From IMG/VR virus record IMGVR_UViG_3300045049_000270: DNA of 64,000 bases. One strand, given 5' to 3'. The translations under genes and the position numbers were made by a program. The stretch comes from a virus (taxonomy: Duplodnaviria > Heunggongvirae > Uroviricota > Caudoviricetes). The notes under the pieces are model-generated. The model was given only the letters and a program-made list of their open reading frames with translations. It did not search any database and was not told where the DNA came from. The first letter of the stretch is position 1; the number at the start of each line of letters is the position of its first letter. Of the stretch, positions 22,752-53,760 are shown one piece after another.

Positions 22752-22903
22752 GAGTTCTCTCTGGGTTCTGTATCGTCCGTGAAGGCTTAGCCAGCGATTA
22801 CAACCTTCATGAATTTGAGGAGTTCTCTCTGGGTTTGACATAAACATCTGATAGAGCCAGTGATACTGGCGACATGTTTTGTAACCTCCATGAATTATTC
22901 GTG
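22752..22903 (-). repeat. Two copies of a bipartite arm-hairpin-arm element (minus orientation)
   Basis: On the + strand: GAGTTCTCTCTGGGTT at 22752 and 22820; AACCT(T/C)CATGAATT at 22802 and 22883. Self-complementary spacers lie between the arms. The same element occurs at 53478-53760. Confidence 0.85.
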
Positions 22904-22924
22904 AAGAATGATTTTTAATGGATG

Positions 22925-25009
22925 TTAAGTGGTAGTGGTACTATTAGCTTTAGCTGCGAATGCTTGTGCTCTTCCGCCTATTTTCTTTTGGAAGCCGTTG
23001 TAGACGTCTTGTACGGTTGAAGCCACTTTAAAGATATCTGGATTAGAAGTCACCACCCAGACTGGTACTACTGATCGTGCGTTTGCTGTTGGATCGGCTT
23101 TTAGGAATTTCAGAGCTCCTCCTGGTCCCAGGAAGTGAGCCATGTAGATATCGGTTGCTACGGGATCTCTGCCTAATCCTCTTTTGAGTATTGCTGTATT
23201 TTCTGCTGCGTAGAATGCGCCGAAGAGTGCTGATGCTTCTGGGTCTTTTTTCATTGCGAAGGTGATATTATATTGTGGGTATCGTTGCATCATAGACTTC
23301 CAGGTGCCGTCGGTGAATTGATATAAACCGTCAGCGGTTGATGCTGGTCGTGCTGAAGCATTGGGTCTGAATGCTGATTCAGTTGCACAGATAGCCATAA
23401 GAACGCCGATATCTACGCCTGTTATGCTTGCTGCTTTTTTTATAGCGTTCATTACTTCGATGGGGATATGGAAGCCGTTGATGCTTGTTTGTTGTCCGCT
23501 CAGGGATGGATTAGGTATTAGTTTGTCTTTACCATCGCCAGTAGTAACATTTGTTGTTGCTGGTTGATCGGTTGTACCATCACCAGGTTTGGTTTTAAAT
23601 GGTGATGGTCGATCAGTTGAACCATTTGGTTGGAATGGTACATTAGCGATTTGACCTTGTGGTGGTGTTGCTGCTTTGGATGATGGGTGACCGTTCCATG
23701 GTTCGTGAGTTGGCATTCTGCTAACGATGGTATTGATGCTTGTTGTGCCGTTAGTTTGTGTGGTTGGTACTATCTTTTCTGGTGCTGTTGCTTTATCAGC
23801 TTTATCGGGATCTGGGGCGGATCCACTATTATCTTGAATTTGTCCAGCTGAACGGATAATCGTACCTGCTTTTGTGGTATGATTTCCTCCTGCGCCAGTT
23901 TGCATATCGCCTGTAGCATACAAATTCACATTGCTTGATGCAGTGGCATCAAGATCAGATTGTGTTGATAGAGCCAGAGTTCCGGTTGATGTCAAAAGTA
24001 ATTGACCAGATGACAATCCACTCATATCGCGTGCTGATGCTAATTGTAGAGTACCACCGGAATTCAATGAAGTATTGCCTGTGCTCTGAGTTGCGATATT
24101 GCCACCTGAGGTAACGGTTACGTTACCACCGGCATCCAGATTGATATTTCGATCTGATCTTACGTTGAAGTCTTGTTCTGTGTGTAGACTAATAGAACCA
24201 CGTGAGTATATGTCAACGCCAGCGTCTGACACTTCAATCCATGAATTGCCTAATCCTGAGTTGATATAAACATAGCCATTAGTTTCGTGTACTAATACTT
24301 GGGTACCAGAACGAGTACGTAGACGGATGAACTCATTGTTTTCATTATCATCAACATATACTTGGTTTGCACGTGGAGTTAAAAATCCAAACACCTTTGA
24401 TGGTGCTTCACGACGTGCTGATGCTGATGTTGAACCTCGTTCGTAGTCATGTGTCAATCCCTGGGATTGTAGGCCCAAAGCTAGTGGATCGAATCGTGGG
24501 CGAATTGGGTTGGCCGTATTGATGTTTGGATCAGCTTTGTTATATTCAACGACTGGTGGCAAGCTGTTGTCTGCGTTATTCTCAAATGCGGTATCGATAG
24601 CCACACCAGGAACCATATGGTTCATATTTTGGGAATAGATACAAGCGAACCAGAAGCCTTTCGAAGCTTCACCATTAATGAAAGTAACCAGTACTTGATT
24701 TTCTACATCTGGTGGGACTGACCACCAGCCATAGCTTTGTTGGCTTTCACCATACAAATGTGAATTTGGTACACGATTAGCAGGGTCGCTTACGCCAGCG
24801 AATGGCGAAGCGTAGCTTACTACGAACCAATGTGCTTCATTTTTTGGATCGCCGCCCATTTCAGGAATGAAGACTTCAAGTCGACCCATACGTTGTTGAT
24901 CGACATTATTTTTTACAATACCAATGTAGATTTTCCCATCTACGATACGGCCGGCACCGGGTTCATTTTTATAGCCAGATGATGTGTGTTTAAAAGAGCC
25001 AAAAGACAT
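22925..25009 (-). CDS. gp5: Baseplate hub/spike protein, gp5-like, with C-terminal lytic transglycosylase (SLT) domain
   Basis: N-terminal OB fold (GIVKNNVDQQRMGRLEVFIP..YASPFAG..PPDVENQVLVTF); beta-helix repeats; PTHEPW; ATESAFRPNA..GLYQF..TW..YMAHFLGPGG. Confidence 0.85.
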   Translation of the reverse strand: MSFGSFKHTSSGYKNEPGAGRIVDGKIYIGIVKNNVDQQRMGRLEVFIPEMGGDPKNEAHWFVVSYASPFAGVSDPANRVPNSHLYGESQQSYGWWSVPPDVENQVLVTFINGEASKGFWFACIYSQNMNHMVPGVAIDTAFENNADNSLPPVVEYNKADPNINTANPIRPRFDPLALGLQSQGLTHDYERGSTSASARREAPSKVFGFLTPRANQVYVDDNENNEFIRLRTRSGTQVLVHETNGYVYINSGLGNSWIEVSDAGVDIYSRGSISLHTEQDFNVRSDRNINLDAGGNVTVTSGGNIATQSTGNTSLNSGGTLQLASARDMSGLSSGQLLLTSTGTLALSTQSDLDATASSNVNLYATGDMQTGAGGNHTTKAGTIIRSAGQIQDNSGSAPDPDKADKATAPEKIVPTTQTNGTTSINTIVSRMPTHEPWNGHPSSKAATPPQGQIANVPFQPNGSTDRPSPFKTKPGDGTTDQPATTNVTTGDGKDKLIPNPSLSGQQTSINGFHIPIEVMNAIKKAASITGVDIGVLMAICATESAFRPNASARPASTADGLYQFTDGTWKSMMQRYPQYNITFAMKKDPEASALFGAFYAAENTAILKRGLGRDPVATDIYMAHFLGPGGALKFLKADPTANARSVVPVWVVTSNPDIFKVASTVQDVYNGFQKKIGGRAQAFAAKANSTTTT

Positions 25010-25017
25010 ATATTACC

Positions 25018-27513
25018 TTATTGATTGACTTGGCCTGAAATTGTTTGATTAGCTGCAATTGAAGGTTGAGCTTGCGCGCTTGTATTAAAGTCAAGTGCTT
25101 TGAATGCATCAGTCAATGCCATACGTGCTGCGGAAATATCTTGTTTGAAAACTCCACCTGCAAAGGTATGAATAATCTGGGTCACACGGTAGATACCAGT
25201 GAAACTTTCGTTGTATTTGAATATTGGTGAACCATCGCTAGCTACGCCTAATGGATATTTGAATGCAATTAGGAACATGATATCACCATAGGTATAATCG
25301 ACTTGTTTTAATCTGGTCATATCTTTCGCCATATGGTCACGTGGAATAGAAATGTTCACCCATCGATTTACACAGCGTTCTAGATTACTAGCACCAAGCC
25401 AATATGGATCGCCGCGTATTGTTAATTGAATACTTTGTAGATCCGCAGTTACTGGACCGTAAATTTGATCCAGGATGGCACCATATATTGAGCGATCTCG
25501 AGTATAATATGCTGGTAATGGTCCTGCACCATAAGTTGTAGGACTTGGTGCTTGTTTTATTGAAACTGGCAATCTTGGAACCTGCGTATTGGATAACTGA
25601 TCTTCAGCATATAAAATATTAGAGCGACTTTGATCTGGTCTTTGTTTACTCAATAAGAAGTCCTGATTTGTTTGTGAAGCGGCACTTGATACTTGGGTTT
25701 TTAGTGAACCAATTTGATTACTTTTTCTAGTAATAGAATCTCGAATTTCTGATTCTTTTGCTTGTATCTCGGTTAGTTTCTGATCATTTGATCCATTGTT
25801 ATTGGTATTTTTCAGTTGTGATTCGGTGGCTTCGAGCTCAGTCAATTGTTGTTTCAATGAATTATTCTGCTCAACCAAATTCTGCATTTGTGCAGCCAGA
25901 GCATTATAATCCTGAGCATCTTGACGTGCTTTTGCCTGATCCGTCATAGCAACATTCGATCCTTGCAGACCATACAAATATGGTAAAGTTGCAGACCAGT
26001 TCAAGTTAAATTTGAAATCGAAAGATAAAACTTCAGTATTCAAACCAGTAAACAAATAATCATAACGCTTGACCATATACGCACTTTCTGTGAAGTTTGT
26101 TATTTTGGTTATTTGATTATTCGTTATGTTTGCATTCGTGATATCTGATTCCGAGATGATAGGTTTGGTTGTAAAATAGCTCAGAATGTTGAAAGTGACA
26201 GTCTTTGCGTATTGATTCACGGTAGCCAAATAATCACCAAAATCAACTGTAGGTTCATGACGGAATACAATACAGTTTCTTGTGGATTGATCAGGTTTGT
26301 CGATATCGCCATCAGTCATAACATCTTTTGCATACTTCTGTGCATCTGGGCAACTCACAAAAAGTTGTTCAATAACATCAGTGAGATTAGTACCCTTTGC
26401 AAATGCTGCTTTGTGTGGTGTGGCTTTATCAACTCCTTCTTCTGAACTTAATGGATTACTTCTTATATCACTGAAATCGATTTGGCTTGGTGATAGCGAC
26501 CATTTCGAAGGATCGATTGTTTTGCCGTTCATAATGAATGGAACCAAGTTAAATTGGTATTGTGTCACTTGGGAGCCATACATAATCAGATTATTACTAT
26601 TCAATGCTGATGCTAAGTCATTCAGCATTTGGCCTATAGTCGAACCTTTTGGTAGATATGGGAACGGTAATTTTAAATCTAATTCTTCATAAATGTCTTC
26701 TTCGGCAGGGATACAAGTAATTGTATATGTACTACCGGCAGCATTTGCTTCAACTGCAATATTTGAAATGGCTACTTGGTATAACCATGAGCCACTATTT
26801 GGAAAATCAACACAAGGATTTTTGTCGAATAAACCATTGTCGTCATAACCTTTGAATGTTACTTCAATAAAATAATAGAACTTGCTGAAGTTGCTGATGC
26901 CAAGTTCTGCTGCTGACTGCGCGATCATATCAAAAAAACTAACACCAAGTGGTTCCTTGATGATCAATGTGAATTCGGTAGCGGCAACTGATCTAGTTAC
27001 ATGGTTGGGTGCGGGAATTGTCTTTATTGTGAGACTGTCAACAGCTAGACCAGTAACACCAGATTGAGCAATTGTGGTTGACTTTCTATCCGCCACCGCT
27101 TGGCGAGCAGCCGTCCAAGATTTGGTAGTTGAAAACGAAATTGGTGTATCATCCGTAATGAAGAAACGAATGTTATATGTGGCTTGATTTACACTTGACA
27201 GAACATTAGGTTGCCAAGATGTATCGTTCGCATTGCTTAGAATCTGAGCCCCAACTGCTGCCGTTGTAGAATCTGACAAAGGCGTTGATGTAACCAAATT
27301 GCTTGTAAATGTTCCTGATTGTGCGGCAACATTATTGGCAATATTTGGGCTTATAGTCGTGAATAGCGTGCTATTACCCAATGTGGCCAATCCAGAAGTA
27401 TTTGCAGTATCAGTTACTACTGATTTTGTAGCAAAAGTGGGCGGTGCTAATTTGGAAACCTTCTGGTTTTGAGCCACATTACCAGTAGGTGTTGAATCTG
27501 TAAAATCAGCCAT
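25018..27513 (-). CDS. Probable baseplate hub protein (gp27-like)
   Basis: 831 aa between the gp53-like and gp5-like genes; LTIRGDPYWL and FTGIYRVTQIIHTF..GVFKQ C-terminal hub motifs. Confidence 0.6.
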   Translation of the reverse strand: MADFTDSTPTGNVAQNQKVSKLAPPTFATKSVVTDTANTSGLATLGNSTLFTTISPNIANNVAAQSGTFTSNLVTSTPLSDSTTAAVGAQILSNANDTSWQPNVLSSVNQATYNIRFFITDDTPISFSTTKSWTAARQAVADRKSTTIAQSGVTGLAVDSLTIKTIPAPNHVTRSVAATEFTLIIKEPLGVSFFDMIAQSAAELGISNFSKFYYFIEVTFKGYDDNGLFDKNPCVDFPNSGSWLYQVAISNIAVEANAAGSTYTITCIPAEEDIYEELDLKLPFPYLPKGSTIGQMLNDLASALNSNNLIMYGSQVTQYQFNLVPFIMNGKTIDPSKWSLSPSQIDFSDIRSNPLSSEEGVDKATPHKAAFAKGTNLTDVIEQLFVSCPDAQKYAKDVMTDGDIDKPDQSTRNCIVFRHEPTVDFGDYLATVNQYAKTVTFNILSYFTTKPIISESDITNANITNNQITKITNFTESAYMVKRYDYLFTGLNTEVLSFDFKFNLNWSATLPYLYGLQGSNVAMTDQAKARQDAQDYNALAAQMQNLVEQNNSLKQQLTELEATESQLKNTNNNGSNDQKLTEIQAKESEIRDSITRKSNQIGSLKTQVSSAASQTNQDFLLSKQRPDQSRSNILYAEDQLSNTQVPRLPVSIKQAPSPTTYGAGPLPAYYTRDRSIYGAILDQIYGPVTADLQSIQLTIRGDPYWLGASNLERCVNRWVNISIPRDHMAKDMTRLKQVDYTYGDIMFLIAFKYPLGVASDGSPIFKYNESFTGIYRVTQIIHTFAGGVFKQDISAARMALTDAFKALDFNTSAQAQPSIAANQTISGQVNQ

Positions 27514-27515
27514 AA

Positions 27516-27830
27516 TTAACCAAGAAGCGATTGAATGCGAGATTTTGTCGGAACATAGATTGACATACCGGCAGTCATATCCCAGATTGGATCACGAATA
27601 AGATCGACATTTCTAACCATAAACACCCACCAGTAAGCAGGAGTCTGATACAATTCATAACTCAAAGCATCTGGTCGATATTGATATCGAGGATCCAGTG
27701 ATGCAATAAATTGATCGGTAGAATCAGCTGGTATATTACGATATTGAATTGGTCCAATATACCAGCTTGTTTGTGGTGTTGTGAAATATGGTGATGATGC
27801 AGGGTAAACAATCTTAGTCATTAGATCCAA
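27516..27830 (-). CDS. gp53: Baseplate wedge protein, gp53-like (LysM-like)
   Basis: YRPDALSYELYQTPAYWWVF..N..I.DPIWD...G..IYVP. Confidence 0.8.
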   Translation of the reverse strand: MDLMTKIVYPASSPYFTTPQTSWYIGPIQYRNIPADSTDQFIASLDPRYQYRPDALSYELYQTPAYWWVFMVRNVDLIRDPIWDMTAGMSIYVPTKSRIQSLLG

Positions 27831-28729
27831 CCTTTCGAACGCATAAGTTCGCCCGTTCTGAATTTATCCAAATCAAAATCTTTTCTCATGGCGGTTGGCG
27901 TGTGTTGAACAACTAAGGAAACCGAGATTTGCATTAAGGATGGCAAACGCACATGGCCACCAGCAACTTGGATTGTCACATAGTCAACTGTGTTGTCTAA
28001 TGTATATGAATGATTCATCACAATAACTGGTAAATCATTAAACATGTAATCACCATAACCGCTTAAGAGTAATACTGGTGGTGGCATGCCGGCCAAGGAA
28101 GGATTTGATTGACCAAAATACATCTTACTCACTGTTCTCAAAAAATGTATTGAAGCGAGTAAATATTCTCCTTCGCGTTGATTTTGCAATGACCATTGAC
28201 CAGATATATCAATCTTCGTACTTGGTGTATTTTTATATGCGTAATAATCTTGATTACTATGTATAAAATGTAATGGTTCGTACTCTACCGCTTGATTCCA
28301 TGAAATCGTTGGTGTGTATGGAAAGAACATACCATTCGTTTCATACAGAATATTCAATATATTATTCGTACCGTTGGGCCCATAAACTTTCTGTTGTGCT
28401 GATACTTGTGGACGTATACGAACACGAAAATCAACAGAATTACCAATGCTGCCTGTTTGGTTAGCCGTAGATCCAAAAATACTATTCGAAATATTTGAGA
28501 TTTCGGAATTGATACCACCAGTAAGGCCAGTAAGAGTTGCTGGCAAACCACTAAGGCTGGACGTCAAGCCTGTAGTTAGGCTACTAGCGGTTTGAGTGAA
28601 ACTAGCTGGAATGCTAAGAGCATCACTGCTTATATTGGTGCCACCAGTAATGCTAAAGCCATTTAGAGAAGTAGTGGTACTACCGACTGAATTTGGCAAA
28701 GAAAAATTAAAATCACTCATTTTGGACAC
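27821..28729 (-). CDS. Probable baseplate-tail tube junction protein (gp48/gp54-like)
   Basis: FPYTPTI, HFLRTVSKM and PPPVLLLSGYG..MFNDLPV motifs; position in the baseplate block. Confidence 0.55.
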   Translation of the reverse strand: MSKMSDFNFSLPNSVGSTTTSLNGFSITGGTNISSDALSIPASFTQTASSLTTGLTSSLSGLPATLTGLTGGINSEISNISNSIFGSTANQTGSIGNSVDFRVRIRPQVSAQQKVYGPNGTNNILNILYETNGMFFPYTPTISWNQAVEYEPLHFIHSNQDYYAYKNTPSTKIDISGQWSLQNQREGEYLLASIHFLRTVSKMYFGQSNPSLAGMPPPVLLLSGYGDYMFNDLPVIVMNHSYTLDNTVDYVTIQVAGGHVRLPSLMQISVSLVVQHTPTAMRKDFDLDKFRTGELMRSKGWI

Positions 28730-29258
28730 CCAAGCCCTGACGGACGCATTTATATATTTCTTGCGCTACCGTAATGCTTTTGATGGGAACCATTTTTTGG
28801 AAGTTCACAAAATTGCCTTCCGAAGCCCATTTTCTTGCGGCAGTAGCGCTGTAATCATGGACATCACGTGGAATTACGATCACCTCGATCGATTGCAAGC
28901 CAATTCTTTTTTCTGGTTCTGGATGATTGATATAATTGTTCAAAGCTGTTTCGAACGAATTTTCTCGATCTTGACCAACAACCAAAGTGCCATGCAAATA
29001 CCCTTCTTTTGCCAATTCACGACATGCTGAGAAAACGTTCATGGTATCTACTATATTGACACCAGGAAAGCATTGTTTGGCAAAATCAAGCTTCTTTTCT
29101 ACGACTAGTGGATTATTCTTTTTGTCATGTGTCCTAGTTAAAAACACACGATGATCGCACTTTTTTTCATCTGCCAAGTCTAAGACTCGTTTTACCAATT
29201 TCTCGTGTCCTTTTGTTGGCGGATTCATACGGCAGATCGTAAAAACAATTTTATCCAT
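28713..29258 (-). CDS. Cytidyltransferase-like (HIGH-motif) nucleotidyltransferase
   Basis: RMNPPTKGH, KKNNPL, VVGQDR and SATAAR motifs. Confidence 0.8.
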   Translation of the reverse strand: MDKIVFTICRMNPPTKGHEKLVKRVLDLADEKKCDHRVFLTRTHDKKNNPLVVEKKLDFAKQCFPGVNIVDTMNVFSACRELAKEGYLHGTLVVGQDRENSFETALNNYINHPEPEKRIGLQSIEVIVIPRDVHDYSATAARKWASEGNFVNFQKMVPIKSITVAQEIYKCVRQGLGVQNE

Positions 29259-29272
29259 GATTTTTACCCAAG

Positions 29273-29295
29273 TATTTATTCGTTAAATTAAATGC
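29273..29295 (-). promoter_or_regulatory. Putative late promoter, GCATTTAATT-N6-ATAAATA
   Basis: Heads the leftward baseplate gene block; motif shared with 7984 and 22709. Confidence 0.65.
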
Positions 29296-29311
29296 CACTA
29301 TAACTGGTTTA

Positions 29312-29340
29312 TTGATATTAACCAGATATTTCATTACTCT
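29312..29340 (+). promoter_or_regulatory. Putative sigma70-type promoter for gp55-gp47-gp46
   Basis: TTGATA-N17-TACTCT upstream of 29386. Confidence 0.45.
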
Positions 29341-29385
29341 AGGTGAAACAATAAACGGACTTTTGTCCATTAATTAAGAATTACA

Positions 29386-30261
29386 ATGACTGATAAAGTA
29401 GAAACAAGTACCACCTCTGCTAACGGCAAGGTTAAGTATATCACTAACAAAGAACTTCTCGCTGAAATTCATAAGAGCAAGAATTCATATTGTGTGTACA
29501 TTGATCCTAAATATGCTGCCTACGATGCTATAGTTCATAGCCTTAGTGAAATCACAGACGAACTGATTCAAGCCACTAAAGTCGAAAAAGCCCGCCTTAT
29601 TGTACAACAAGCCAAGGCAAAACAGCGTGAAGCTGGCAAAAAGCCATATGAAATCAAGGTTGACGATGTCAAGCCAGAGGACTTACCCACGGAATCTATC
29701 GTATTCCGTGTTATGACACCTCATCACCTACCACTTGATCCTGATCGTAAGCGCCGTGGAAAAGGGGAGGAAGGCAACTATGTCAAAACTCCATTTCTTC
29801 CATTCAAACATTTCATCATAGTTGACGGGAACCCAACAGAAGTTGGACGTAGTCACTGGACTGGTACCATCCAAGATGGTAAGTTTGATATGACGCATGG
29901 ACAGATTAGCCATCGCCTGGCTGTAATGTTTATGATGTTGGTTGATCGTTATTCTAGACGTTCGAACTGGCGCGGTTATACGTATCTGGATGAAATGAAG
30001 AGTCATGCTTTATTGCAGCTTTCACAGATTGGCCTTCAATTTGATGAATCAAAATCCGATAATCCATTTGCTTTTTACACAACTACGATTAAGAACTGTT
30101 TTACTCGTATTTTGAATCTTGAGAAGAAAAATCAAAATATCCGTGATGACATCTTGATTATGCACGGTGTAAATCCTTCTTATACTCGACAAAATGAGCA
30201 TGAATATGCCAATGTAGAAGGTCCTAGCGAAGTAATCGATCGTACTGCCGACCACAAATAA
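29386..30261 (+). CDS. gp55: Late-transcription sigma factor, gp55-like
   Basis: YITNKELLAEI; NWRGYTYLDEMK; FDESKSDNPFAFYTT; adjacent to gp47/gp46 as in T4-like phages. Confidence 0.85.
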   Translation: MTDKVETSTTSANGKVKYITNKELLAEIHKSKNSYCVYIDPKYAAYDAIVHSLSEITDELIQATKVEKARLIVQQAKAKQREAGKKPYEIKVDDVKPEDLPTESIVFRVMTPHHLPLDPDRKRRGKGEEGNYVKTPFLPFKHFIIVDGNPTEVGRSHWTGTIQDGKFDMTHGQISHRLAVMFMMLVDRYSRRSNWRGYTYLDEMKSHALLQLSQIGLQFDESKSDNPFAFYTTTIKNCFTRILNLEKKNQNIRDDILIMHGVNPSYTRQNEHEYANVEGPSEVIDRTADHK

Positions 30262-30319
30262 CAATTTTGGTTCTGTCTGAGAGCGCGCATATAATCGCGC
30301 TACATTAATAGGATAAAGC

Positions 30320-45651: not shown

Positions 45652-45658
45652 AATTTAC

Positions 45659-45703: not shown

Positions 45704-45732
45704 AAAAACGGGGAACAATGTTCCCCGTTTTT
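45704..45732. terminator. Bidirectional intrinsic terminator
   Basis: AAAAACGGGGAAC-aat-GTTCCCCGTTTTT between convergent genes. Confidence 0.85.
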
Positions 45733-46061
45733 TATTGGCTAATGAATAAGCCCTGTTGTGCCATCTGCCCTACAAAGTTACCTAAATTCTTTTCAACTTG
45801 AATTCTGACAATTTTGTATCCATTCTTTATAGCCTCTAGATTTTCTCTAGCATCCTTTGTTTCTTTCGATAATTTGATGCCTGCTCGTGCTTTATTTCGT
45901 TTACGCAATCGTTCTTTATGTACATCGTCTACTAGGATTGCACCAGGAAACAATGCTCTATATGAGTCAAAGGTATGACCATGAATCTTCAGATGAGTTG
46001 CTGTGATGATTCTAAAAGATTTAGAGCATATTTGGCATATCGGATATGTATCTGTTGTCAT
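45732..46061 (-). pseudogene. Probable internally deleted homing-endonuclease-like gene (Zn finger + NUMOD3-like + DUF559/Vsr-like tail)
   Basis: CQICSKSFRIITATHLKIH..Y...FP, then GIKLSKETK joined directly to DARENLEAIKNGYKIVRI; no recognisable nuclease core. Confidence 0.5.
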
Positions 46062-46108
46062 TATTAAACGTGAAATAAATATTTGGCACATTATACAGGA
46101 ATTTGGCT

Positions 46109-46531
46109 ATGCGCTTTCAAGAAATCACTGAACTCTTTGACAATAGAGCAAGTTGGCATTATACCAAAATCGATAAGAATCAAGTTGAAGCCACATTTAC
46201 TATTGGTGAAAACACGCATATAGTTGGCTTTGGTATTGTTGATGTGAGTGAAGAAGGTGATACTTGGGAAGTGGCTTTTGACACCAATCGTCAATTTGAT
46301 ATGACTGGCACTGGTAATGCTTATACGGTATTTGCAACTGTGGCCAATGTCATTCTGGACTTTGTCAAACGGGCGAAACCATATAGAATAGAATTCTCAG
46401 CAGAGAAAAATGAAGGATCAAGAGTGACAGTTTATAGGAAGATGGCTAAACAATTGGCATCAAAGATTGGTTATAATATTGAAGAAGAACAACGTTACAT
46501 AAGCGTATATTACGTATTGACTAGAAAATAA
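46109..46531 (+). CDS. Hypothetical late protein, possible internal head protein
   Basis: ATAAATA at 46075-46081 and AGGA RBS; begins MRFQEITE. Confidence 0.7.
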   Translation: MRFQEITELFDNRASWHYTKIDKNQVEATFTIGENTHIVGFGIVDVSEEGDTWEVAFDTNRQFDMTGTGNAYTVFATVANVILDFVKRAKPYRIEFSAEKNEGSRVTVYRKMAKQLASKIGYNIEEEQRYISVYYVLTRK

Positions 46532-46558
46532 AAGAGGAGCGATTGCTCCTCTTTTATT
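46527..46558. terminator. Bidirectional intrinsic terminator
   Basis: AATAAAAGAGGAGC-gatt-GCTCCTCTTTTATT between convergent genes. Confidence 0.85.
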
Positions 46559-46832
46559 AATTATCACGTTGCAGAATATTGGCTATTAATACTGTATTGT
46601 TGCTGACATCGAGTATTTCATATTTGCCATTCGGCTCTCGAATTAAAAATTTGTTATTCAATAGTTTAATTGTTGAATGATTCAATGACAGTCGTTCATA
46701 AATCTTTCTGCCATCAGAAATCATATCAACATATGATTTGATGCATTCATGACGTTCTATGATTTCTCCATTTCTATCGAATGCAGTAACAGTCCATGCT
46801 TTGGTAGAATATATCCACTCACCAATTATCAT
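46557..46832 (-). CDS. Small paralogue-array protein
   Basis: AWTVT; ends EILDVSNNTVLIANIL; coupled. Confidence 0.65.
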   Translation of the reverse strand: MIIGEWIYSTKAWTVTAFDRNGEIIERHECIKSYVDMISDGRKIYERLSLNHSTIKLLNNKFLIREPNGKYEILDVSNNTVLIANILQRDN

Positions 46833-47095
46833 TAATTGTATTCCTCATCGTAGCCATACTGCAACATAATTTGCATCATGTCTCCATCAGTATCAAGCAG
46901 AAATTCGTCATCACCAATCAGTAATCGTACGGTTTTGTTATACGTTAGTTGTTTACGTTTATGCCAAGCAAATTCAAGAGCGGCTTTCAACGTTTTAATG
47001 TAAGTATTAACCATCACCTGACGTTCAAAATCTGGGGCACTCACTGTCCATTTATATGCAAGGTCGCCAGTACTTCTTATGATTATTTGCATCAT
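46832..47095 (-). CDS. Small paralogue-array protein
   Basis: KWTVSAP..TLKAALEFA..LLDTDGDMMQIMLQY. Confidence 0.75.
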   Translation of the reverse strand: MMQIIIRSTGDLAYKWTVSAPDFERQVMVNTYIKTLKAALEFAWHKRKQLTYNKTVRLLIGDDEFLLDTDGDMMQIMLQYGYDEEYN

Positions 47096-47346
47096 TTAGA
47101 ATATCTTAATAGAAATGCTACCACGTCTGCATCATCTAATACGTCAAGGAACGTCTTCCCTTCACCAGTATACACACTAATCGTTGATGGATACTTCAAT
47201 GCTTGGTGATACTTCTTCACTTCATCTACTGCTTCTTTAGCTGACTTTACCTCAAAGATATCCCATTTACCAGATATACCACGCCGTAGATGAATGAATA
47301 TATCGTTACCAACTATTTGGATTGCAATCTCTCGATTTACAGTCAT
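47092..47346 (-). CDS. Small paralogue-array protein
   Basis: SAKEAVDEV..YPSTISV..VLDDADVVAFLLRYS. Confidence 0.75.
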   Translation of the reverse strand: MTVNREIAIQIVGNDIFIHLRRGISGKWDIFEVKSAKEAVDEVKKYHQALKYPSTISVYTGEGKTFLDVLDDADVVAFLLRYSK

Positions 47347-47624
47347 ATTGCTTTGAGCATAACGTACATAAGATCACCATCTGTTTCAATGGTGTAAACT
47401 GTTCTATCTTTGAAAATTACACGAATTGGTGCATCTTCAATTGCGATATTCTTCTCGTTCATATGATTCATAGCTGCATCATATGCTGTTCTAAAGTCAG
47501 CAAAACAATCAGCAATGCGATATACAGAAAAACCATCTAATAACAGAGTTTGACGCTTATATAGAAGCCAATGTGGCTTCTGATTTAACGCTTTATATTC
47601 AATAGAAACTTCTGAAGGTTTCAT
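47343..47624 (-). CDS. Small paralogue-array protein
   Basis: HWLLY..DFRTAYDAA..APIRV..IETDGDLMYVMLK. Confidence 0.75.
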   Translation of the reverse strand: MKPSEVSIEYKALNQKPHWLLYKRQTLLLDGFSVYRIADCFADFRTAYDAAMNHMNEKNIAIEDAPIRVIFKDRTVYTIETDGDLMYVMLKAI

Positions 47625-47929
47625 AGTGTATATCGCAAAATAAGTTGAACTATGTCAAATTCATCAAATAAGTTGATTTGAAGAGTTTCTTCTTCGTCTA
47701 TGTTCTTGATATTGATCAGGCAACCCATCATGAAGGGGTGAGTCTTGTATTTGAAACGAATCGTATCAATTACGTCTCTGATCGTATTCACACGAATTTC
47801 ATGACTATCGCAAATGTCATCAAATTCTGGGAAGATGATTGTCCAATTGTAATCTGGATCTACTTCTTCGCTATATCGCTCTACCGTGATTTTTTTACGA
47901 TTATGAGTATTATTTGGTACTACTATCAT
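47621..47929 (-). CDS. Small paralogue-array protein
   Basis: NWTIIFP..TIRDVIDTI..LFDEFDIVQLILRY; start uncertain (47929 or 47938). Confidence 0.7.
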   Translation of the reverse strand: MIVVPNNTHNRKKITVERYSEEVDPDYNWTIIFPEFDDICDSHEIRVNTIRDVIDTIRFKYKTHPFMMGCLINIKNIDEEETLQINLFDEFDIVQLILRYTL

Positions 47930-48197
47930 ATTCTTCAATTCTCAATAACAACGAAATCATATCGGTGTCATCTGCTATGATTTCAAATTCTGATGTATTA
48001 TCATTGAAATCATGACGCACAACAAATGGATAACCTTTCAACTGTTTGGTGACCATTATGGCTTCACGCTTTGATGCAAAACTTTGCAGTATTGTGTTAT
48101 ACCACAATACTGACAATTCTTCTAAATCGACATTAGCAGATAAAAACACAATTGATGTGCCCACACCCAACCAGACTACAGGAGTTTTGGTTATCAT
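47910..48197 (-). CDS. Small paralogue-array protein
   Basis: FASKREAIMV..YPFVV..IADDTDMISLLLR. Confidence 0.7.
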   Translation of the reverse strand: MITKTPVVWLGVGTSIVFLSANVDLEELSVLWYNTILQSFASKREAIMVTKQLKGYPFVVRHDFNDNTSEFEIIADDTDMISLLLRIEEYDSSTK

Positions 48198-48532
48198 TTC
48201 GAATCAGCAGTGAGAATGTGAACCATCGCGTCACTTTCAGTTTCTACTAATTCGAAAAACCCAGACATCCAAGATTTACCAAGCCCTTCTGGACGAACTT
48301 CCAAATATATTGGTAAATCTTTGAAAGCTTTAACCATCTGTTTGGCTCTGAATATCCGTTTAAAAGCGGTGCCAAGAGATTTATGAGTTTCACGCTCTGA
48401 ATCAAAACTACAAAGTCTCATACTGAGAGCTTTGCCATATGCACGCAATGGCAAACATACCTGCCATTCGTTATGACCACGAACAATGACAAGCATTGGA
48501 TCGTAATATTGGGTATAGTTGAATTCTACCAT
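48194..48532 (-). CDS. Small paralogue-array protein
   Basis: EWQVCLP..SLGTAFKRI..LPIYL..VETESDAMVHIL. Confidence 0.75.
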   Translation of the reverse strand: MVEFNYTQYYDPMLVIVRGHNEWQVCLPLRAYGKALSMRLCSFDSERETHKSLGTAFKRIFRAKQMVKAFKDLPIYLEVRPEGLGKSWMSGFFELVETESDAMVHILTADSK

Positions 48533-48846
48533 TAACTGTATTTCAAAATTAATTCAATCAATTGAACATCACTACAATCGGTCAAATCCCCAGATTGATT
48601 ACCATCTTCGGTTACCAATATAATTGGAAATTGTTTGTAATTCTGATCATTTTTTGAATACTGTTCTTTTTGTTCTTTGGCAAATTTTATACTTTCAGCC
48701 AAACTTTTAGTGAAATTAGTGACAACAGATGAAGTGGTTACAACAATTTCACCATTCAAAATAATGTAACTTGGTTTTGCGTTAATCCAATTACCAATTC
48801 TATTTCTATAAATGGTAAACCAGGGCTTAATTTCATCATTCATCAT
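48532..48846 (-). CDS. Small paralogue-array protein
   Basis: SLAESIKFAK..FPIILV..SDVQLIELILKYS. Confidence 0.75.
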   Translation of the reverse strand: MMNDEIKPWFTIYRNRIGNWINAKPSYIILNGEIVVTTSSVVTNFTKSLAESIKFAKEQKEQYSKNDQNYKQFPIILVTEDGNQSGDLTDCSDVQLIELILKYS

Positions 48847-49124
48847 TGATAACTCAAAATAGCAACAAGATGATCATCGTCATTTGCAAGAATATGAGGT
48901 TCTTCACTTTGTGAAAATATTACAATTGGCAGCTTATGATAATAAGGTGTGAGATCCCTTATTATCTTCATAGCGTTGTATGCATCCATGAAATTGCTGT
49001 ATTCGAGCCCCGTATTAGGACCAAAAGCTGGTTTCCCTGTATGTGCTGTGGTCATTAACGGATATGTGAATTTCCAGCCAAATTCATATTGAATCAACGA
49101 TAAGTGAAAAACAGGTAATATCAT
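48843..49124 (-). CDS. Small paralogue-array protein
   Basis: GWKFTYP..NFMDAYNAM..LPIVIF..LANDDDHLVAILSY. Confidence 0.75.
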   Translation of the reverse strand: MILPVFHLSLIQYEFGWKFTYPLMTTAHTGKPAFGPNTGLEYSNFMDAYNAMKIIRDLTPYYHKLPIVIFSQSEEPHILANDDDHLVAILSYQ

Positions 49125-49417
49125 AAGTACGCCAAAATTGCTGCTACAACATCACTATCTGTTTCGATTTCCATCCATTGACCATTTTTCATGACAATGA
49201 TTGGAATATCAGTTAATTCTGCATTTTCTTCTTTTACTTTAAACGCGTCACTGATAGCATTTTTCAATGGTTGATATTGAGCTTGCTCATATATGTCATG
49301 ATCATCATAGAAGATGAGTAAGTCGTGTTCATAATACCAACTAGGGACTAGAACAGCAAAAGCATCAGCGGTTGTTGAGTAGAAAATCCCAATGTTGTAG
49401 AAATCTAGAGGTTTCAT
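49121..49417 (-). CDS. Small paralogue-array protein
   Basis: PLKNAISDA..IPIIVM..IETDSDVVAAILAY. Confidence 0.75.
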   Translation of the reverse strand: MKPLDFYNIGIFYSTTADAFAVLVPSWYYEHDLLIFYDDHDIYEQAQYQPLKNAISDAFKVKEENAELTDIPIIVMKNGQWMEIETDSDVVAAILAYL

Positions 49418-49647
49418 TTTGAATACTTCAAAATTGCAAGTAATGCATCATTTTCACTTTCGACGACAAAAACACCGTCTTTTTCCATTAGGAGAATTTC
49501 CAGATAGTTCAAATAATCGTAATTTACCCGCAAATTCGCTGCCGTTTCTAGTGCCTGCGTGAAAGTCAGCCGTTCAATCCATGTATTATATGAAGGATAG
49601 ATCCTTTCAGGATCAGGATATCGGACAACCCAAGGTTTCTTTTTCAT
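49414..49647 (-). CDS. Small paralogue-array protein (true start may be 49681, with a 1-nt frameshift)
   Basis: PWVVRYP..TFTQALETA..VESENDALLAILKYS. Confidence 0.7.
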   Translation of the reverse strand: MKKKPWVVRYPDPERIYPSYNTWIERLTFTQALETAANLRVNYDYLNYLEILLMEKDGVFVVESENDALLAILKYSK

Positions 49648-49677
49648 CTTGGTGATATGTTATTGTTATCGCTTTTC

Positions 49678-49986
49678 TCATAATCCACTGTATTTCAAAA
49701 AGAACTCTAGAGCGGCGATCTCATCGTCAAGATAAACTCGGTCACTATTACAAACCATGATAATTGGTAGTTCACCGTACATCTCAGGTGCCAAAGTCTT
49801 CAACTTTTTAGCTATTCGTATCGCATCATTCAAATCAGTAGCACGATCTTTGCTGTACATAACATCACCAGATACTGACCAACGAAGAAACTCTTTGCCG
49901 TTAAGTGTTGGCCATTTGACAACCCATTTTGTATATTTGGCAATAATGGCGTCAGTCTCCAACATAATGTAAATCTTCTCAGACAT
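49678..49986 (-). CDS. Small paralogue-array protein
   Basis: KWVVKWP..DLNDAIRIAK..LPIIMV..LDDEIAALEFFLKYS. Confidence 0.75.
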   Translation of the reverse strand: MSEKIYIMLETDAIIAKYTKWVVKWPTLNGKEFLRWSVSGDVMYSKDRATDLNDAIRIAKKLKTLAPEMYGELPIIMVCNSDRVYLDDEIAALEFFLKYSGL

Positions 49987-49990
49987 TACA

Positions 49991-50425
49991 TCATCCCATT
50001 AGCGATAGATCCCCTAGGATCGACGCCAAATCGTCTTTCGGACCAAATACATATCCGCACGTGTCCAGTGGAATCAAATGCGTTACAGAGCCGTCTCGTA
50101 GGGGATAGGTAGGATCATGACATACACCACACACATGGCCTGCTTGAACAGCGGCCAAGAGTTTCTGCTGAAGAAGCGTTCCATCGACACTCAAAGTAAT
50201 GGCGGTGCCAAACCCACGATCACCCTTCCAATGATCGAACAGAGCACGTTCAAAGTCTGAACGAGTGCCATGCTTCATGACATTCTCGAATAAGTTGGTA
50301 GCATGTGAACCCTGGGCAACTGCTTTGCCAGGGTTCATGCTGGCAAGATCTGTGCGCATCAGGATATAGAGGCATGGCTCAGATGAATATGAAACTGCGT
50401 TCTTTTGTTTTTCTTTTGACATCAT
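49991..50425 (-). CDS. Peptidyl-tRNA hydrolase PTH2-like protein
   Basis: LYILMRTDL.SMNPGKAVAQGSHA N-terminal PTH2 motif; T..YVFGP near the C-terminus. Confidence 0.75.
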   Translation of the reverse strand: MMSKEKQKNAVSYSSEPCLYILMRTDLASMNPGKAVAQGSHATNLFENVMKHGTRSDFERALFDHWKGDRGFGTAITLSVDGTLLQQKLLAAVQAGHVCGVCHDPTYPLRDGSVTHLIPLDTCGYVFGPKDDLASILGDLSLMG

Positions 50426-50443
50426 TCACTCCAATGGTAGAGT
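50416..50443 (+). promoter_or_regulatory. Putative sigma70 promoter for candidate ncRNA B
   Basis: TTGACA-N16-TAGAGT with TGn extension; predicted start about 50450. Confidence 0.6.
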
Positions 50444-50449
50444 GAATGG

Positions 50450-50791
50450 TAACACTAACTCAGTGACTTGTGTATGGTTTGGCAACCAGTTTATCTGAAA
50501 TGGCTTTCACTATGAGTTCATTTACTACTGTAACAACAGATCTAGCATCAAAGAGCCCGCCAGCATAGCTCATGTCTGGGCGAACACCGAATACATGATT
50601 CCAGCAGTAAGCAAGCCTAGCTTATTCGGTGTAAGCCTAATAGATCCATATGGTGTATATAGGGTTCGGTCTTCACTGCTCATAAGCTCACGCAGTAAGT
50701 CGACTGTAAAGATTGCATGCGATAGCAGCATATTAGGAACCTCTACATACAATACGTGTAAGAGTAACACACATGCAGATGAGTAGTGTTA
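50450..50791 (+). ncRNA. Candidate large structured ncRNA B (about 340 nt)
   Basis: Ends pair (TAACACTAACTCA / TGAGTAGTGTTA); internal stems ACACCGAATA/TATTCGGTGT, CCTAATA/TATTAGG and ATGAGTT/AGCTCAT; G-U pairs favour the + strand. Confidence 0.6.
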
Positions 50792-50815
50792 AAACCGTGT
50801 TAAACGTATTAGGTA

Positions 50816-50843
50816 TTGACTAGAAGGCGGTATCGTATAGACT
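50816..50843 (+). promoter_or_regulatory. Putative sigma70 (early) promoter
   Basis: TTGACT-N16-TAGACT; same -10 as the promoter at 56920. Confidence 0.65.
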
Positions 50844-50868
50844 GCATTTTTCATTAGGATTGGCAACG

Positions 50869-51048
50869 ATGAAAACCCTAGACGAATTTATCGGCACGAT
50901 ATTGACAGAGGATGAAATCGAACAACTACAAGAACAAGGCGTTCGCGTTAAACGCCCTGGATTCATGTACACCATGGAGTTCATCGGTAGTCGTGTAAAT
51001 GTTCATTTGGATAAACAAAATATGGTTCTTGGAATCAATCAGGGTTGA
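50869..51048 (+). CDS. Peptidase inhibitor I78 / potato inhibitor I-like protein
   Basis: VRVKRPGFMYTMEFIGSRVNVHLD...V..I..G fits the family pattern VRxxxPGxxxTMDxxxxRxNxxxD. Confidence 0.7.
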   Translation: MKTLDEFIGTILTEDEIEQLQEQGVRVKRPGFMYTMEFIGSRVNVHLDKQNMVLGINQG

Positions 51049-51068
51049 TCTTGGTAAGCTTGCCTTGA

Positions 51069-51338
51069 TTGGCAATAAAGTTTGCCATATCATCTATGTT
51101 TTCAAAACATTCAAATAAAATGAACGAAATCGTAGTCAACAACACTCAACAGCAAGTGACAGCGTCTTTTGATCTTCTGAATTTCATAATTAGTATGACA
51201 GAAGAAATTCTGTCAGATGTGGAATTCGCTTACCCCCGCAATGAATTTGATGAAGAACGAGCTAATACGATGCTACAAAAAATCCAAGGGGAAGCACGAG
51301 CGTTAAAGACCGTGGTCGAAAATATTAAGAAGTCATGA
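51069..51338 (+). CDS. Hypothetical helical protein
   Basis: ORF coupled to the next gene; start uncertain. Confidence 0.6.
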   Translation: MAIKFAISSMFSKHSNKMNEIVVNNTQQQVTASFDLLNFIISMTEEILSDVEFAYPRNEFDEERANTMLQKIQGEARALKTVVENIKKS

Positions 51339-51631
51339 TCTTCTTGATGCCCTTGATTGAAAATCGTAGATCAAGAAAATACTGGCAAGTCAAAGCAGGA
51401 ATCAAAATCGACGTTGTTGGGAAACGTATACGTAATTTTGATTTCAAAGATGACAACGCGCTGCAATTCAAATCCTTCCGTGAAGCCATGTTATTTGTCA
51501 AGGAAAAATGGGGATTCCCGATTGCAATATCAGACTGGGTTTTCGGTTCAGAACCAGCCTCTAACGTGCATGACGTAGAGATCGTCATGAATGAAACGGA
51601 AGCCATACAAGCACTTCTTCAATACACATGA
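51335..51631 (+). CDS. Small paralogue-array protein
   Basis: YWQVKA..SFREAMLFVK..FPIAI..VMNETEAIQALLQY. Confidence 0.75.
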   Translation: MIFLMPLIENRRSRKYWQVKAGIKIDVVGKRIRNFDFKDDNALQFKSFREAMLFVKEKWGFPIAISDWVFGSEPASNVHDVEIVMNETEAIQALLQYT

Positions 51632-51930
51632 TCAATTGTCCATTGATAGCTTGGAGTAGATGGAGTCGATGGAGTCCATACCGTTGGTATATCTATCCAA
51701 ATGCAACATTTGATATTGAAGATAATATAATCATAAAATATAGACTTTCGACTTTACCTACTTCGGATGAAAAACCCAAGTCGTTTTCTGAAACGTTGGC
51801 TTCAGTTAAAAAGGATTACCACTATCCAATAGTGGTATTTAAGAATGAAATTGATAAAGCAACATCAGATTCTTTATTCATCATCGAAAATGAACATGAT
51901 GAAGTCGAAGCTATATTGAAATTCTCATGA
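51628..51930 (+). CDS. Small paralogue-array protein
   Basis: RWYIYP..SFSETLASVK..YPIVVF..IENEHDEVEAILKFS. Confidence 0.75.
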   Translation: MINCPLIAWSRWSRWSPYRWYIYPNATFDIEDNIIIKYRLSTLPTSDEKPKSFSETLASVKKDYHYPIVVFKNEIDKATSDSLFIIENEHDEVEAILKFS

Positions 51931-52244
51931 TCGAAAAAGTATTGTTGGTTTATTACATCTGCTATGACCAAACGTGGGAATTGCTGTTTGATGCAGAAAT
52001 AAATGTTGATGATGGATTTGGATTTCTCTATACGGTTGGGACATCAGAACACAGTTTTGATTCGTTCAGTGTAGCAATCAAATCAGCATGGTTCTATAAA
52101 AATAAGATCGATGCAAGACTTGGTGATAAACGCAAATTGTTTGTGATCAAGAATCCACGTGATAGTCGATTCTTCAACGATGATATAAGTATGTCGATAG
52201 AAACTGATAATGATATGGTTGAAGCCATTCTGAGGTTTTCATGA
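51927..52244 (+). CDS. Small paralogue-array protein
   Basis: TWELLF..SFSVAIKSA..IETDNDMVEAILRFS. Confidence 0.75.
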   Translation: MIEKVLLVYYICYDQTWELLFDAEINVDDGFGFLYTVGTSEHSFDSFSVAIKSAWFYKNKIDARLGDKRKLFVIKNPRDSRFFNDDISMSIETDNDMVEAILRFS

Positions 52245-52564
52245 GTACCGAAATCATAGCCACCTTAGTTGGTCCAGTCCCCGAAGCTTGGGAATTACAA
52301 CCTTGGGTGGTTTACCCGAATAGAACAGTATTCGTCAATGATCAATTAAATCAAATTACCTTAGAACTATTCACATCTGGTAGATGGGATAAGGTCTTAA
52401 ATCTGTTCATCCCAGAAAAATTGGGCCAAAAGTTTGTAAAAACCAGGCAAGAAGCAATCACTTACGCATTAACATTGGGTAAACCAGTTGTAATTAAAAC
52501 GACAAATAGATTAGTCCTAATAAATGACGAATATGAAGCTATAGTAGCTCTATTAGATCAATAA
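52241..52564 (+). CDS. Small paralogue-array protein
   Basis: PWVVYP..TRQEAITYA..KPVVI..INDEYEAIVALL. Confidence 0.75.
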   Translation: MSTEIIATLVGPVPEAWELQPWVVYPNRTVFVNDQLNQITLELFTSGRWDKVLNLFIPEKLGQKFVKTRQEAITYALTLGKPVVIKTTNRLVLINDEYEAIVALLDQ

Positions 52565-52566
52565 AA

Positions 52567-52592
52567 TGATGGCACCTAATTAGGTGCCATCA
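52567..52592. terminator. Perfect 26-nt palindrome between convergent genes
   Basis: TGATGGCACCTAA|TTAGGTGCCATCA. Confidence 0.7.
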
Positions 52593-52609
52593 ACCAATAC
52601 AACCACCAA

Positions 52610-53398
52610 TTAACCTATCGAAAAGCCATATCCACCGGCACGTGAATCGATTAGATCCTTCAATTCCTTCTCCAATCTCTCCATCTCAGCCGCCGCTTCA
52701 GTCTTCAAAGCTTCACCATTCAGCTGAAATCCACCCTGCGGTCCAGCAATCTGGCTAAACATACCACGAGCTTCACCTAACATCTGTTTACACACCGCAG
52801 TTGTATAATCACGCAACCACGGACGTGCATATGTATCCGCAAATAATACTTCCTCAGGACGGGTATTCCATACCTGCATTAAGATAGTTTCAACAGCCAC
52901 AAACGCACGGTCAAATGTGATACGATGACTTACCGGCTCCCATTGAAACAATAACTCACGACCAAACATACGGCCAGCTTGACTCTGAAATTGCATCGCT
53001 AAGTCATAGGTGGCTAACGTACCAGATCCACCAGCACTCATACCACCAGGATTGTTGATCAAATACAAATTGTTCGAAAACGCAAGACTGAACGGATCAA
53101 TCTGGGGACCACCCTGGTTACCACCAATACCACGACGAAAAACCTTAGTAACCTCCTGAACCTCATTAGGCAAAGTATATTGAGTAGTATCCGGTTGAAG
53201 ATCCAAAAAGATATACGATTCCTCCAACGAATTATTCGATCTCTGGCGATAACGATCCAATGCATATTGCACAGCTAAATCATAATGCTCAGGGTCTAAA
53301 TCAATATCAATCATACCAGAACCAAGTCGTAATTGCACTTCCTTGATAATCCTCTGGCGTCCACTCATCTGATTGGAATCCATATACCAATCCCCCAT
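52610..53398 (-). CDS. gp13: Neck protein, gp13-like
   Basis: LRLGSGMIDIDLDPEH; WLRDYTTAVCKQMLGEARG.F..IAGPQGG..LNG; late-promoter core at 53413-53419. Confidence 0.88.
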   Translation of the reverse strand: MGDWYMDSNQMSGRQRIIKEVQLRLGSGMIDIDLDPEHYDLAVQYALDRYRQRSNNSLEESYIFLDLQPDTTQYTLPNEVQEVTKVFRRGIGGNQGGPQIDPFSLAFSNNLYLINNPGGMSAGGSGTLATYDLAMQFQSQAGRMFGRELLFQWEPVSHRITFDRAFVAVETILMQVWNTRPEEVLFADTYARPWLRDYTTAVCKQMLGEARGMFSQIAGPQGGFQLNGEALKTEAAAEMERLEKELKDLIDSRAGGYGFSIG

Positions 53399-53477
53399 AT
53401 AGTAATTACCAATATTTATCGCAATTCCTCATCAATTAACACTCCAGTAGCTTCCCAAAAACAACCCCCATTATCAC

Positions 53478-53760
53478 CACGAATATTCCATGGAGGTACC
53501 TAATACTCATCACGAAGTATTACCAAAACCCAGAGAGAAGTCGTCAAAATCCTCAACGAAGAACTCATGAAGGTTATCCATGACACCCTAATCATGAATA
53601 GAAACCCCGAGAGAACTACAAAAATTGGCTATACCACTACTATGGTGGTTAAACCAATAATGAAGAAACCACCAATAATATCAACGAATATTCATGGAGG
53701 TTGAGATCGTTTCAGGGTCTACGGACCCTTCATGGACGACATCAAACCCAGAGAGAAGTC
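53478..53760 (+). repeat. Three copies of the bipartite arm-hairpin-arm element
   Basis: Left arms (CGAAtAtTCATGrAGGT) at 53478, 53556 and 53684; right arms (AAACCCmGAGAGAAsT) at 53526, 53602 and 53744; hairpin spacers between them. Confidence 0.85.

Follow-up and report, generated by a model that had tools for sequence, protein, structure and literature searches.

Genomes of T4-like phages carry several origins, each about 100 bp long, which open the DNA in one direction and offer a displaced strand to the helicase-primase; oriF and oriG need a middle promoter and an A+T-rich unwinding element, and T4 origins share no motif (PMC3016281). When a T4 origin fires, the non-template strand is displaced and receives the primosome, and synthesis without the helicase stops at about 2.5 kb (PMC3016281). 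Here we analyse a repeat in 64,000 nucleotides of DNA (the window) from a tailed virus of the Caudoviricetes, IMG/VR record IMGVR_UViG_3300045049_000270: two conserved arms around a variable hairpin, in three copies on the + strand (locus A) and two on the - strand (locus B). We propose, at a probability of about 0.5, that these elements are one-way, origin-like sites that load a replisome and open the DNA in one direction. The sequence-only reading of this DNA had placed the element at the DNA level, with a replication origin among its options; orientation, an antisense insertion, covariation, even spacing and a one-sided footprint support that part, and origin activity itself is what we infer from them. 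The replisome families that serve oriF and oriG are encoded here as well; unlike those origins, the sites carry one conserved, structured motif, evenly repeated, with no promoter facing the opened side.

Other described elements are similar in part. The hrs of baculoviruses are dispersed arrays of imperfect palindromes that serve as origins and transcription enhancers in a large viral genome. The element resembles them in its dispersed arrays; hrs differ in belonging to a eukaryotic virus and in being symmetric palindromes bound as duplex DNA, and we know of no covarying variable stem or one-sided footprint in them. The ssi, pas and sso sites of phiX174, G4 (oric) and plasmids offer an irregular one-strand hairpin with conserved unpaired bases and strand and direction specificity, which the element may share, but they are single sites on small rolling-circle replicons and use host enzymes (PMC5714925 for part of this), whereas 10-16 sites lie here in both orientations in a 0.4-0.5 Mb double-stranded DNA phage with its own replisome. 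The PeSL cassettes of T4-like phages are likewise dispersed, conserved intergenic stem-loop cassettes exchanged among loci; they contain a sigma-70-like promoter together with a stem of the terminator type, and hyperplastic regions are where they cluster (PMC4122927), while the present element has neither promoter nor terminator stem, occurs in core modules too and is evenly spaced.

The repeat is an undescribed element that probably works like a known kind, an origin or a single-strand initiation site. The sequence-only reading did not recognise it, and it belongs to no family listed in Rfam, where nothing matched even at E 10; no tRNA or tmRNA was found. A blastn search of both loci and a diverged variant against 50,697 phage records returned only chance pieces of 21-32 nt, and none of 14 pattern matches in bacterial and archaeal genomes scored on both arms. 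By eye, resemblances to the hairpin ribozyme and glmS failed for want of a cleavage-site strand and of the other domains. No description of the element was found in full-text searches, which took in few subscription papers, nor in passages of PMC3322345, PMC4122927, PMC5714925 and PMC7824862.

On the strand on which the sequence-only reading wrote the unit, the left part reads TTCA(C/A)GAATAAT-TCATGGAGGTT, followed by 3-6 unpaired nt and a stem of 4-7 bp; next come a variable top, 3-7 unpaired nt, AACCCAG-R-N-AGAA(C/G)TC and a weak (T/A)GATT(C/T)TGG tail. The opposite strand, called F below, reads GAG(T/A)TCT..CTGGGTT-stem-AACCTCCATGAA. The arms are imperfect inverted repeats able to pair (TC/GA, TTC/GAA, TG/CA, GGTT/AACC), and, judged by eye, the closing stem changes in step between families, being GGTT/AACC in this one but GATT/AATC and GAGT/ACTC in G004, a complete phage of 424,529 bp that is less closely related (neck protein 60%). 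The inner stem covaries, and this is a real covariation signal: at an anchored offset, at least 4 Watson-Crick bp form in 40 of 45 distinct spacers, versus 6.3 when the halves are swapped (largest 16 in 5000), and in 20 of 22 subfamily representatives, versus 3.0 (largest 10 in 20000), with 21 different 4-bp cores. RNAalifold on a MAFFT alignment gave no structure, and column-wise counts of inner-stem pairs were not significant (45.8% paired). A shift of 1-3 nt in the register of the stem explains this, and pairing was therefore assessed by the anchored test. Pairs flanking the stem occur as G-T 27 times on F, against 14.9 expected, and 10 times on the written strand, against 11.6, a mild sign that F is the strand that folds. 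The assertion that the spacers vary in sequence and yet all fold thus holds as covariation, not as stability. In whole-unit DNA folding only one of the five window copies beats shuffles (22812-22915, z -3.4/-2.4; the other four z -1.1 to +0.2, both strands; energies -3.4 to -13.6 kcal/mol), and the spacers alone fold modestly better than shuffles (mean z about -1); with such low stability, folding depends on a protein or on prior opening of the strand.

The second line of evidence is a one-sided change in base composition, best seen in a complete relative of the window's phage (G001; an IMG/VR phage of 523,836 bp with direct terminal repeats, about 73-84% identical to the window in aligned blocks of nucleotides). 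On strand F, 3' of the element, keto bases (G+T) are in excess at 15 of 15 intact loci (skew 0.11-0.26 over the first 500 nt); the excess peaks at 0.26-0.32 at 200-350 nt and has faded by 800-900 nt, and the pooled signal has z 10.8 against random intergenic anchors, compared with z 1.2 on the other side. The degenerate copy at 27.7 kb has no footprint (0.02). In the window, the two footprints measure 0.25 (locus B) and 0.21 over 800 nt, and no other 800-nt interval of the 64 kb reaches |0.2|. Footprint B (22910..23810, +) keeps a skew of 0.10-0.46 per 100 nt over 900 nt, beyond which the value is near 0, and overlies the 3' end of a tail-lysozyme/hub gene in antisense; footprint A (52570..53471, -; 0.08-0.34 per 100 nt) lies over the neck (gp13-like) gene in sense. 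At four-fold sites footprint A reaches 0.52, as against 0.03 and 0.09 in the orthologues of Sinorhizobium phage Phosso and of G004. Twelve of 12 distinct loci on other contigs have a footprint (0.12-0.27 vs -0.05 to 0.07), five of them with less than 300 nt of flank and two probably orthologous, and in G002 and G007 the strongest skew peak adjoins an element.

Is the skew a coding effect? Within the footprint C and A are lost and T and G gained, and the four-fold skew is 0.43/0.38 in sense/antisense genes of G001 and 0.58/0.46 in the window, falling to 0.17/0.00 further out in G001 (controls 0.17 to -0.04). Because the skew is strongest at four-fold sites and alike in sense and antisense genes, it is mutational. 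The footprints show no increase in synonymous divergence from G001 (0.44 and 0.35, compared with 0.38-0.66 in most genes). Phosso's own strongest skew peak proved to be a glycine-rich gene. A co-occurring strain (run X3) differs from the window at 37 positions in 9 kb, 16 of them in 22910-23810 and 14 of these within 116 nt (23131-23246); this patch looks like one imported event, possibly marking a recombination hot spot, and was not used as footprint evidence.

A natural experiment points to the element as the cause of the skew where it is inserted. The 166-kb copy of G001 is an in-frame insertion of about 34-42 codons, antisense inside its gene (166266-167270; L058:6266-7270), and is absent from the orthologues in G004, Phosso and the Agrobacterium phage Atu_ph07; a loose contig end holds the same insertion in the window's phage. 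The host gene has no Pfam or PHROG match; from its motifs we take it to be nucleotidyltransferase-like. The rest of the inserted gene has a four-fold skew of 0.55, as compared with 0.02 and 0.13 in orthologues and a genome mean of 0.08 (sd 0.13).

An insertion of this kind also suits a non-autonomous mobile hairpin, REP- or MITE-like, spread by a nicking enzyme, with the skew a by-product of nick-primed strand displacement. REP, REPIN and RPE sequences with their RAYT partners are short hairpin repeats in arrays, some lying in-frame in genes. The element shares the hairpin repeats in arrays and the in-frame insertion; it differs in having no Y1 transposase, no GTAG foot and a low, even copy number. 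Tandem arrays and near-identical spacers at non-orthologous loci (that of copy B1 in the window is 88% and 86% like the G001 copies at 166 and 226 kb) do speak of copying. We nevertheless consider such mobility quite unlikely as the explanation: spacing is even in two genomes; the same loci are kept between phages of 60-80% protein identity; no target-site duplication is seen by eye at the insertion; no copy scores on both arms among the bacterial matches; and the Y1 transposase domain PF01797 is found in none of four genomes (controls 6/14), although a host enzyme could act in trans. Nor does a Y1 transposase or integrase appear in the G001 protein scan, which covered 255 proteins of 170-1500 aa at E 1e-8, outside the 72-137 kb module and open reading frames (ORFs) crossing stretch borders.

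The two loci that the sequence-only reading described in the window are both real, but they belong to a genome-wide family. A two-arm weight matrix, which yields 0 copies on shuffled or reversed controls, finds 22 intact copies in G001; with the degenerate one (39 bits) these make 23, at 16 loci, five of them multi-copy arrays and 11 single-copy. The loci are evenly spaced (largest gap 52.9 kb, coefficient of variation 0.41; P 1.4e-4 vs uniform placement and 5.5e-5 vs draws from intergenic gaps). Copies lie on both strands, sense and antisense to flanking genes and independent of gene direction, and the flanking genes differ from locus to locus; spacing is even only with orientations pooled, same-strand gaps reaching about 175-215 kb. 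G004 has a diverged family of 16 right arms at 10 loci, nine with a recognisable left arm, and its spacing is again even (P 0.005). At least two of these loci have orthologues among those of G001; copies occur at the neck locus and at the counterpart of the 67-kb locus of G001. Three of five covariance-model matches outside the window are G004 copies, weak ones (E 0.04-5). Loose contig ends place further copies elsewhere on contigs of the window's own phage. Judged by both arms, true copies make up 20 of 27 loci in one pattern scan and at least eight of the 120 matches listed in another, which took in 20 of 64 parts and whose remaining 112 were judged chance; a further scan had 15 of its 22 loci discarded as chance. 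Seven of the 16 G004 copies have no left arm and follow, instead, 8-11 nt tandem duplications and a GATGTCGTA motif (e.g., 40.7, 155.9 and 190.3 kb). A 12-bp palindrome built of the left-arm core stands between tandem copies in three arrays (L032, L033, L044), a hint that a dimer may recognise CATGGAGG in duplex DNA.

Outside this group, the element was not found in Phosso or Atu_ph07 (pattern, weight-matrix and covariance-model scans) or in PA5oct (pattern scan), and no cultured phage with it was found. Two weak covariance-model matches in Phosso and Atu_ph07 (E 1.1 and 1.5) were rejected, as they lie in coding starts, are single-copy and have no footprint. The early promoters of G004, Phosso and Atu_ph07 are repeat families separate from the element; the dispersed 11-mers of Phosso and Atu_ph07 are such ordinary early promoters, and so is a second G004 repeat.

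Even spacing would also be expected of signals for packaging, ejection or fork arrest along the genome. We regard these as most improbable: orientation is mixed, and none of them predicts an exposed strand with its 5' end at the site. The packaging role proposed by the sequence-only reading finds no support.

How would a one-way origin leave such a trace? In the model that we favour, the arms, folded or opened, would be recognised by a protein. On the 3' side of the site F would be displaced, and about 0.9 kb of this strand would remain single-stranded or often be copied anew. The G+T excess would then reflect either exposure as a single strand (C to T, A to G) or synthesis of low fidelity; wobble errors, if F is made again and again, would produce a skew of the same sign and in the same direction. 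A 5'-to-3' replicative helicase may load on F and move away from the site, and the first lagging-strand primer would be laid on F near the hairpin and run back through the element; that primer could deliver a sliding clamp oriented to activate late promoters past the multi-copy arrays, and many such sites might allow quick copying of a 0.4-0.5 Mb genome. G001 encodes a T4-type replisome (family-B polymerase, primase, DnaB-type helicase, SSB, UvsX and UvsW) along with a clamp-loader-like ATPase, a ligase and a 5'-3' nuclease. The polarity is informative: the exposed strand has its 5' end at the element, as it would if synthesis or a 5'-to-3' helicase displaced F from there onwards. Resection from a break would expose the other strand, on both sides, and neither a fork barrier nor transcription running into the site would fit. 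Deamination of cytosine in single-stranded DNA is the usual, not the sole, explanation of replication strand bias (PMC3269016).

The family may also be coupled to late transcription. The late-promoter motif, which we take to be of the T4 TATAAATA type, stands 3-34 nt past the right arm and points away from the footprint; it is present at five of five multi-copy G001 arrays and none of the 11 single-copy loci (background 31/590, 5.3%; P about 1e-3 for 5/16); it also follows the right arm at both window loci and at six of 12 other loci. In the window, the motif at 53867..53874 (+) lies about 100 nt past the last right arm of locus A and faces away from the footprint; that at 22709..22716 (-) lies about 30 nt past the last right arm of locus B, upstream of a gp25-like wedge gene; and that of the neck gene (53413..53420, -) falls inside the footprint. 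Two outward-facing late promoters around the 53-kb cluster, the first and last of these, had been noticed in the sequence-only reading, correctly so. A homologue of the late sigma factor gp55 is encoded at 29386-30261. Three late promoters (7976-8015, 22701-22740 and 29265-29304; the second that of locus B) have in common a block (repeat family D1) that extends further upstream and is longer than the T4 octamer.

Could activation of late genes, then, be the main purpose? The sites might be fixed points of lagging-strand priming and clamp loading on passing forks, chiefly serving late transcription: with priming at the hairpin on F, the Okazaki-length stretch that comes next on this strand would be exposed longest, and gp45-like clamps would face the late promoter. 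Okazaki fragments have a length comparable with that of the footprint, which is about one fragment long. The promoters past the arrays speak for this account, and the geometry supplies a 3' end on the non-transcribed strand: T4 late activation needs a clamp loaded at a 3' end on that strand, which must lie downstream of the promoter where it is a primer-template junction (PMC2988020). Yet ten intact single-copy loci show the footprint although no single-copy locus has the motif; spacing is even only with both orientations taken together; and the G+T depletion predicted on the other side is absent. We hold this account to be rather unlikely.

An RNA-level role would be an unrecognised promoter or processed RNA along F, with an R-loop of 0.2-0.8 kb or an abundant transcript, and the skew would be transcription-associated mutation. 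RNA folding energies favour F in 34 of 45 copies, and the peak at 200-350 nt from the site with decay by 800 nt would suit it; R-loops, moreover, prime T4 origins (PMC3016281), where this account overlaps the one-way origin. Even so, no sigma-70 or late promoter at a constant position faces F; conservation is missing from the apical loops (a cUACGg loop in 1 of 45); some copies are antisense to the genes on either side, which run in one direction, and one is within a gene; the Rfam search was empty; and the F-rich composition alone lowers RNA energies. Transcription as the source of the footprint is thus an unlikely proposition.

Single-strand recombination is the remaining alternative. The attC sites of integrons have imperfect paired arms, extrahelical bases, a variable terminal structure and one strand richer in G and T, with core order RYYYAAC ... 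GTTRRRY. Apart from the core order, these general features recur here, and attC-like recombination or inversion sites would suit the conserved imperfect arms with a variable terminal stem, the exchange of spacers among loci and the 14-difference patch at 23131-23246. The element nonetheless has its arms conserved in sequence, no integrase and no cassette array, and its core order is reversed: the arms read GGTT ... AACC on both strands, GTT before AAC. The tyrosine recombinase domain PF00589 occurs in none of four genomes (controls 14/14); the interval between loci A and B is collinear and uninverted in G001; no strand-changing joint was found in the contigs of one sample, contigs showing presence only; and the one-sided 0.9-kb footprint would stay unexplained. 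The integron-like recombination suggested by the sequence-only reading is therefore very unlikely.

Several observations weigh against the one-way origin itself. Arm pairing is high (93-94% of cells paired) but near-invariant, hence uninformative within the family, and whole-unit DNA folds are weak and favour neither strand (F lower in 21 of 45). The homologous family of G004 has no footprint, its keto skew staying between -0.07 and +0.08 at every distance up to 2 kb; loss of uracil glycosylase does not account for this difference from G001, the enzyme being missing alike (0/4 genomes). Neither a long-range switch of skew at the sites nor a mirror signal on the other side was found, and the footprint loci, coming from one genome and related phages, are non-independent samples. 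No sigma-70-type promoter faces F at a fixed position at 15 G001 loci or in the window; a clade-specific middle promoter could escape such a scan, but there is no conserved block beyond the arms. A+T content, 0.585/0.575/0.559 at 100/300/800 nt, in mostly coding sequence, vs 0.529 for the genome, is mildly enriched; with no promoter into the footprint and so mild an enrichment, the design of oriF and oriG appears to be absent. No initiator was found: 114 G001 proteins are candidates by their presence pattern, being common to G004 and absent from Phosso and Atu_ph07, and the UL9-type origin-binding SF2 helicase family PF02399 matched none of four genomes, though the controls were also unmatched. 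Finally, the nearest cultured phages copy genomes of similar size without the element.

One stretch of G001 stands apart from the family. At 515.4-517.4 kb (L075:15400-17400), about 2 kb of non-coding DNA has a sharp inversion of keto skew and ten clustered TTCCTCTGAG repeats; the skew has the same sign on both sides, as expected of a two-way origin, which makes this stretch a candidate main two-way origin or packaging/terminus region.

The five copies of the window can be placed precisely. Their right arms lie where the sequence-only reading had put them, at 53526-53542, 53602-53618 and 53744-53760 (+) and at 22820-22836 and 22752-22768 (-); at up to three mismatches there are five matches, versus a mean of 0.18 in 100 shuffles (largest 2). 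Left cores CATG(G/A)AGGT start at 53489, 53566 and 53693 (+) and at 22892 and 22811 (-), 24-48 nt upstream of each right arm. The helices that had been named are present, but parts of the description need small corrections: the first + copy has GGTA in place of GGTT, and the second - copy a truncated left arm; nTCAAA follows the right arm in three of five copies; and the left-arm pattern as written matches only two of five at up to three mismatches. Locus A, between the divergent neck genes and their late promoters, comprises A1 (53472..53548, +; left arm, inner stem TAATACT/AGTATTA at 53501-53507/53516-53522, right arm; 50 bits), A2 (53554..53624, +; variant arms, inner stem CATGA/TCATG; 36 bits) and A3 of the long class (53676..53772, +; inner stem TCGT/ACGA plus an apical hairpin; 78 bits), whose spacer is 84% like that of the G001 67-kb copy. 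A small separate hairpin lies between A2 and A3 (53633-53649), and a different hairpin occupies the same place in G001. Locus B, in the gap between the tail-lysozyme gene and the late promoter of the gp25-like gene, comprises B1 of the long class (22812..22909, -; inner stem AAACAT/ATGTTT plus an apical hairpin; 82 bits) and B2 (22746..22819, -; truncated left arm, inner stem ATCG/CGAT). A covariance-model scan of the window with filters off found no sixth copy.

The structural module of a T4-like jumbo myophage fills the window: baseplate, late sigma factor, a gp46/47-like nuclease, portal, major capsid, neck, sheath and tube genes. Phosso is the closest isolate (capsid 81%, neck 51% identity) and Atu_ph07 the second (70% and 47%); the sequencing runs with matching DNA are from soil or rhizosphere, and the four whose contigs were compared come from a single sample, possibly the source of the window. 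Between 45732 and 52564 lie some 20 small ORFs (70-140 aa) without a family match, hypervariable among strains and relatives, and at 50416-50860 about 430 nt without a long ORF follow a sigma-70-like promoter, with no Rfam match; the stretch at 50450-50800 folds no better than shuffles (z -0.7). Host-like genes are scattered across G001: IF3, ClpP/ClpX/ClpB, DnaJ, a tRNA synthetase, a TerC/TelA cluster, a PAS histidine kinase, queuosine-pathway-like genes and UvdE.

What would such sites mean for these phages? For the replication of half-megabase T4-like jumbo phages, the element offers defined sites together with a strand, a direction and a measurable mutational footprint. The fullest form of the proposal, a possible but doubtful one, is a portable, structure-encoded, promoter-less, one-way origin cassette of 100 bases, open to being copied elsewhere (within genes too, in frame), selected at intervals of 30-50 kb and starting DNA synthesis by way of a phage-specific recognition protein, with arrays doubling as a clamp enhancer of late promoters. 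The in-frame insertion shows the cassette working alone in a new place, so that it could be assayed as a 100-120 bp part, and the footprint approach could locate such sites in uncultured phages. If the proposal is true, a bacterial virus would have a eukaryote-like, multi-origin design with a shared sequence-structure code.

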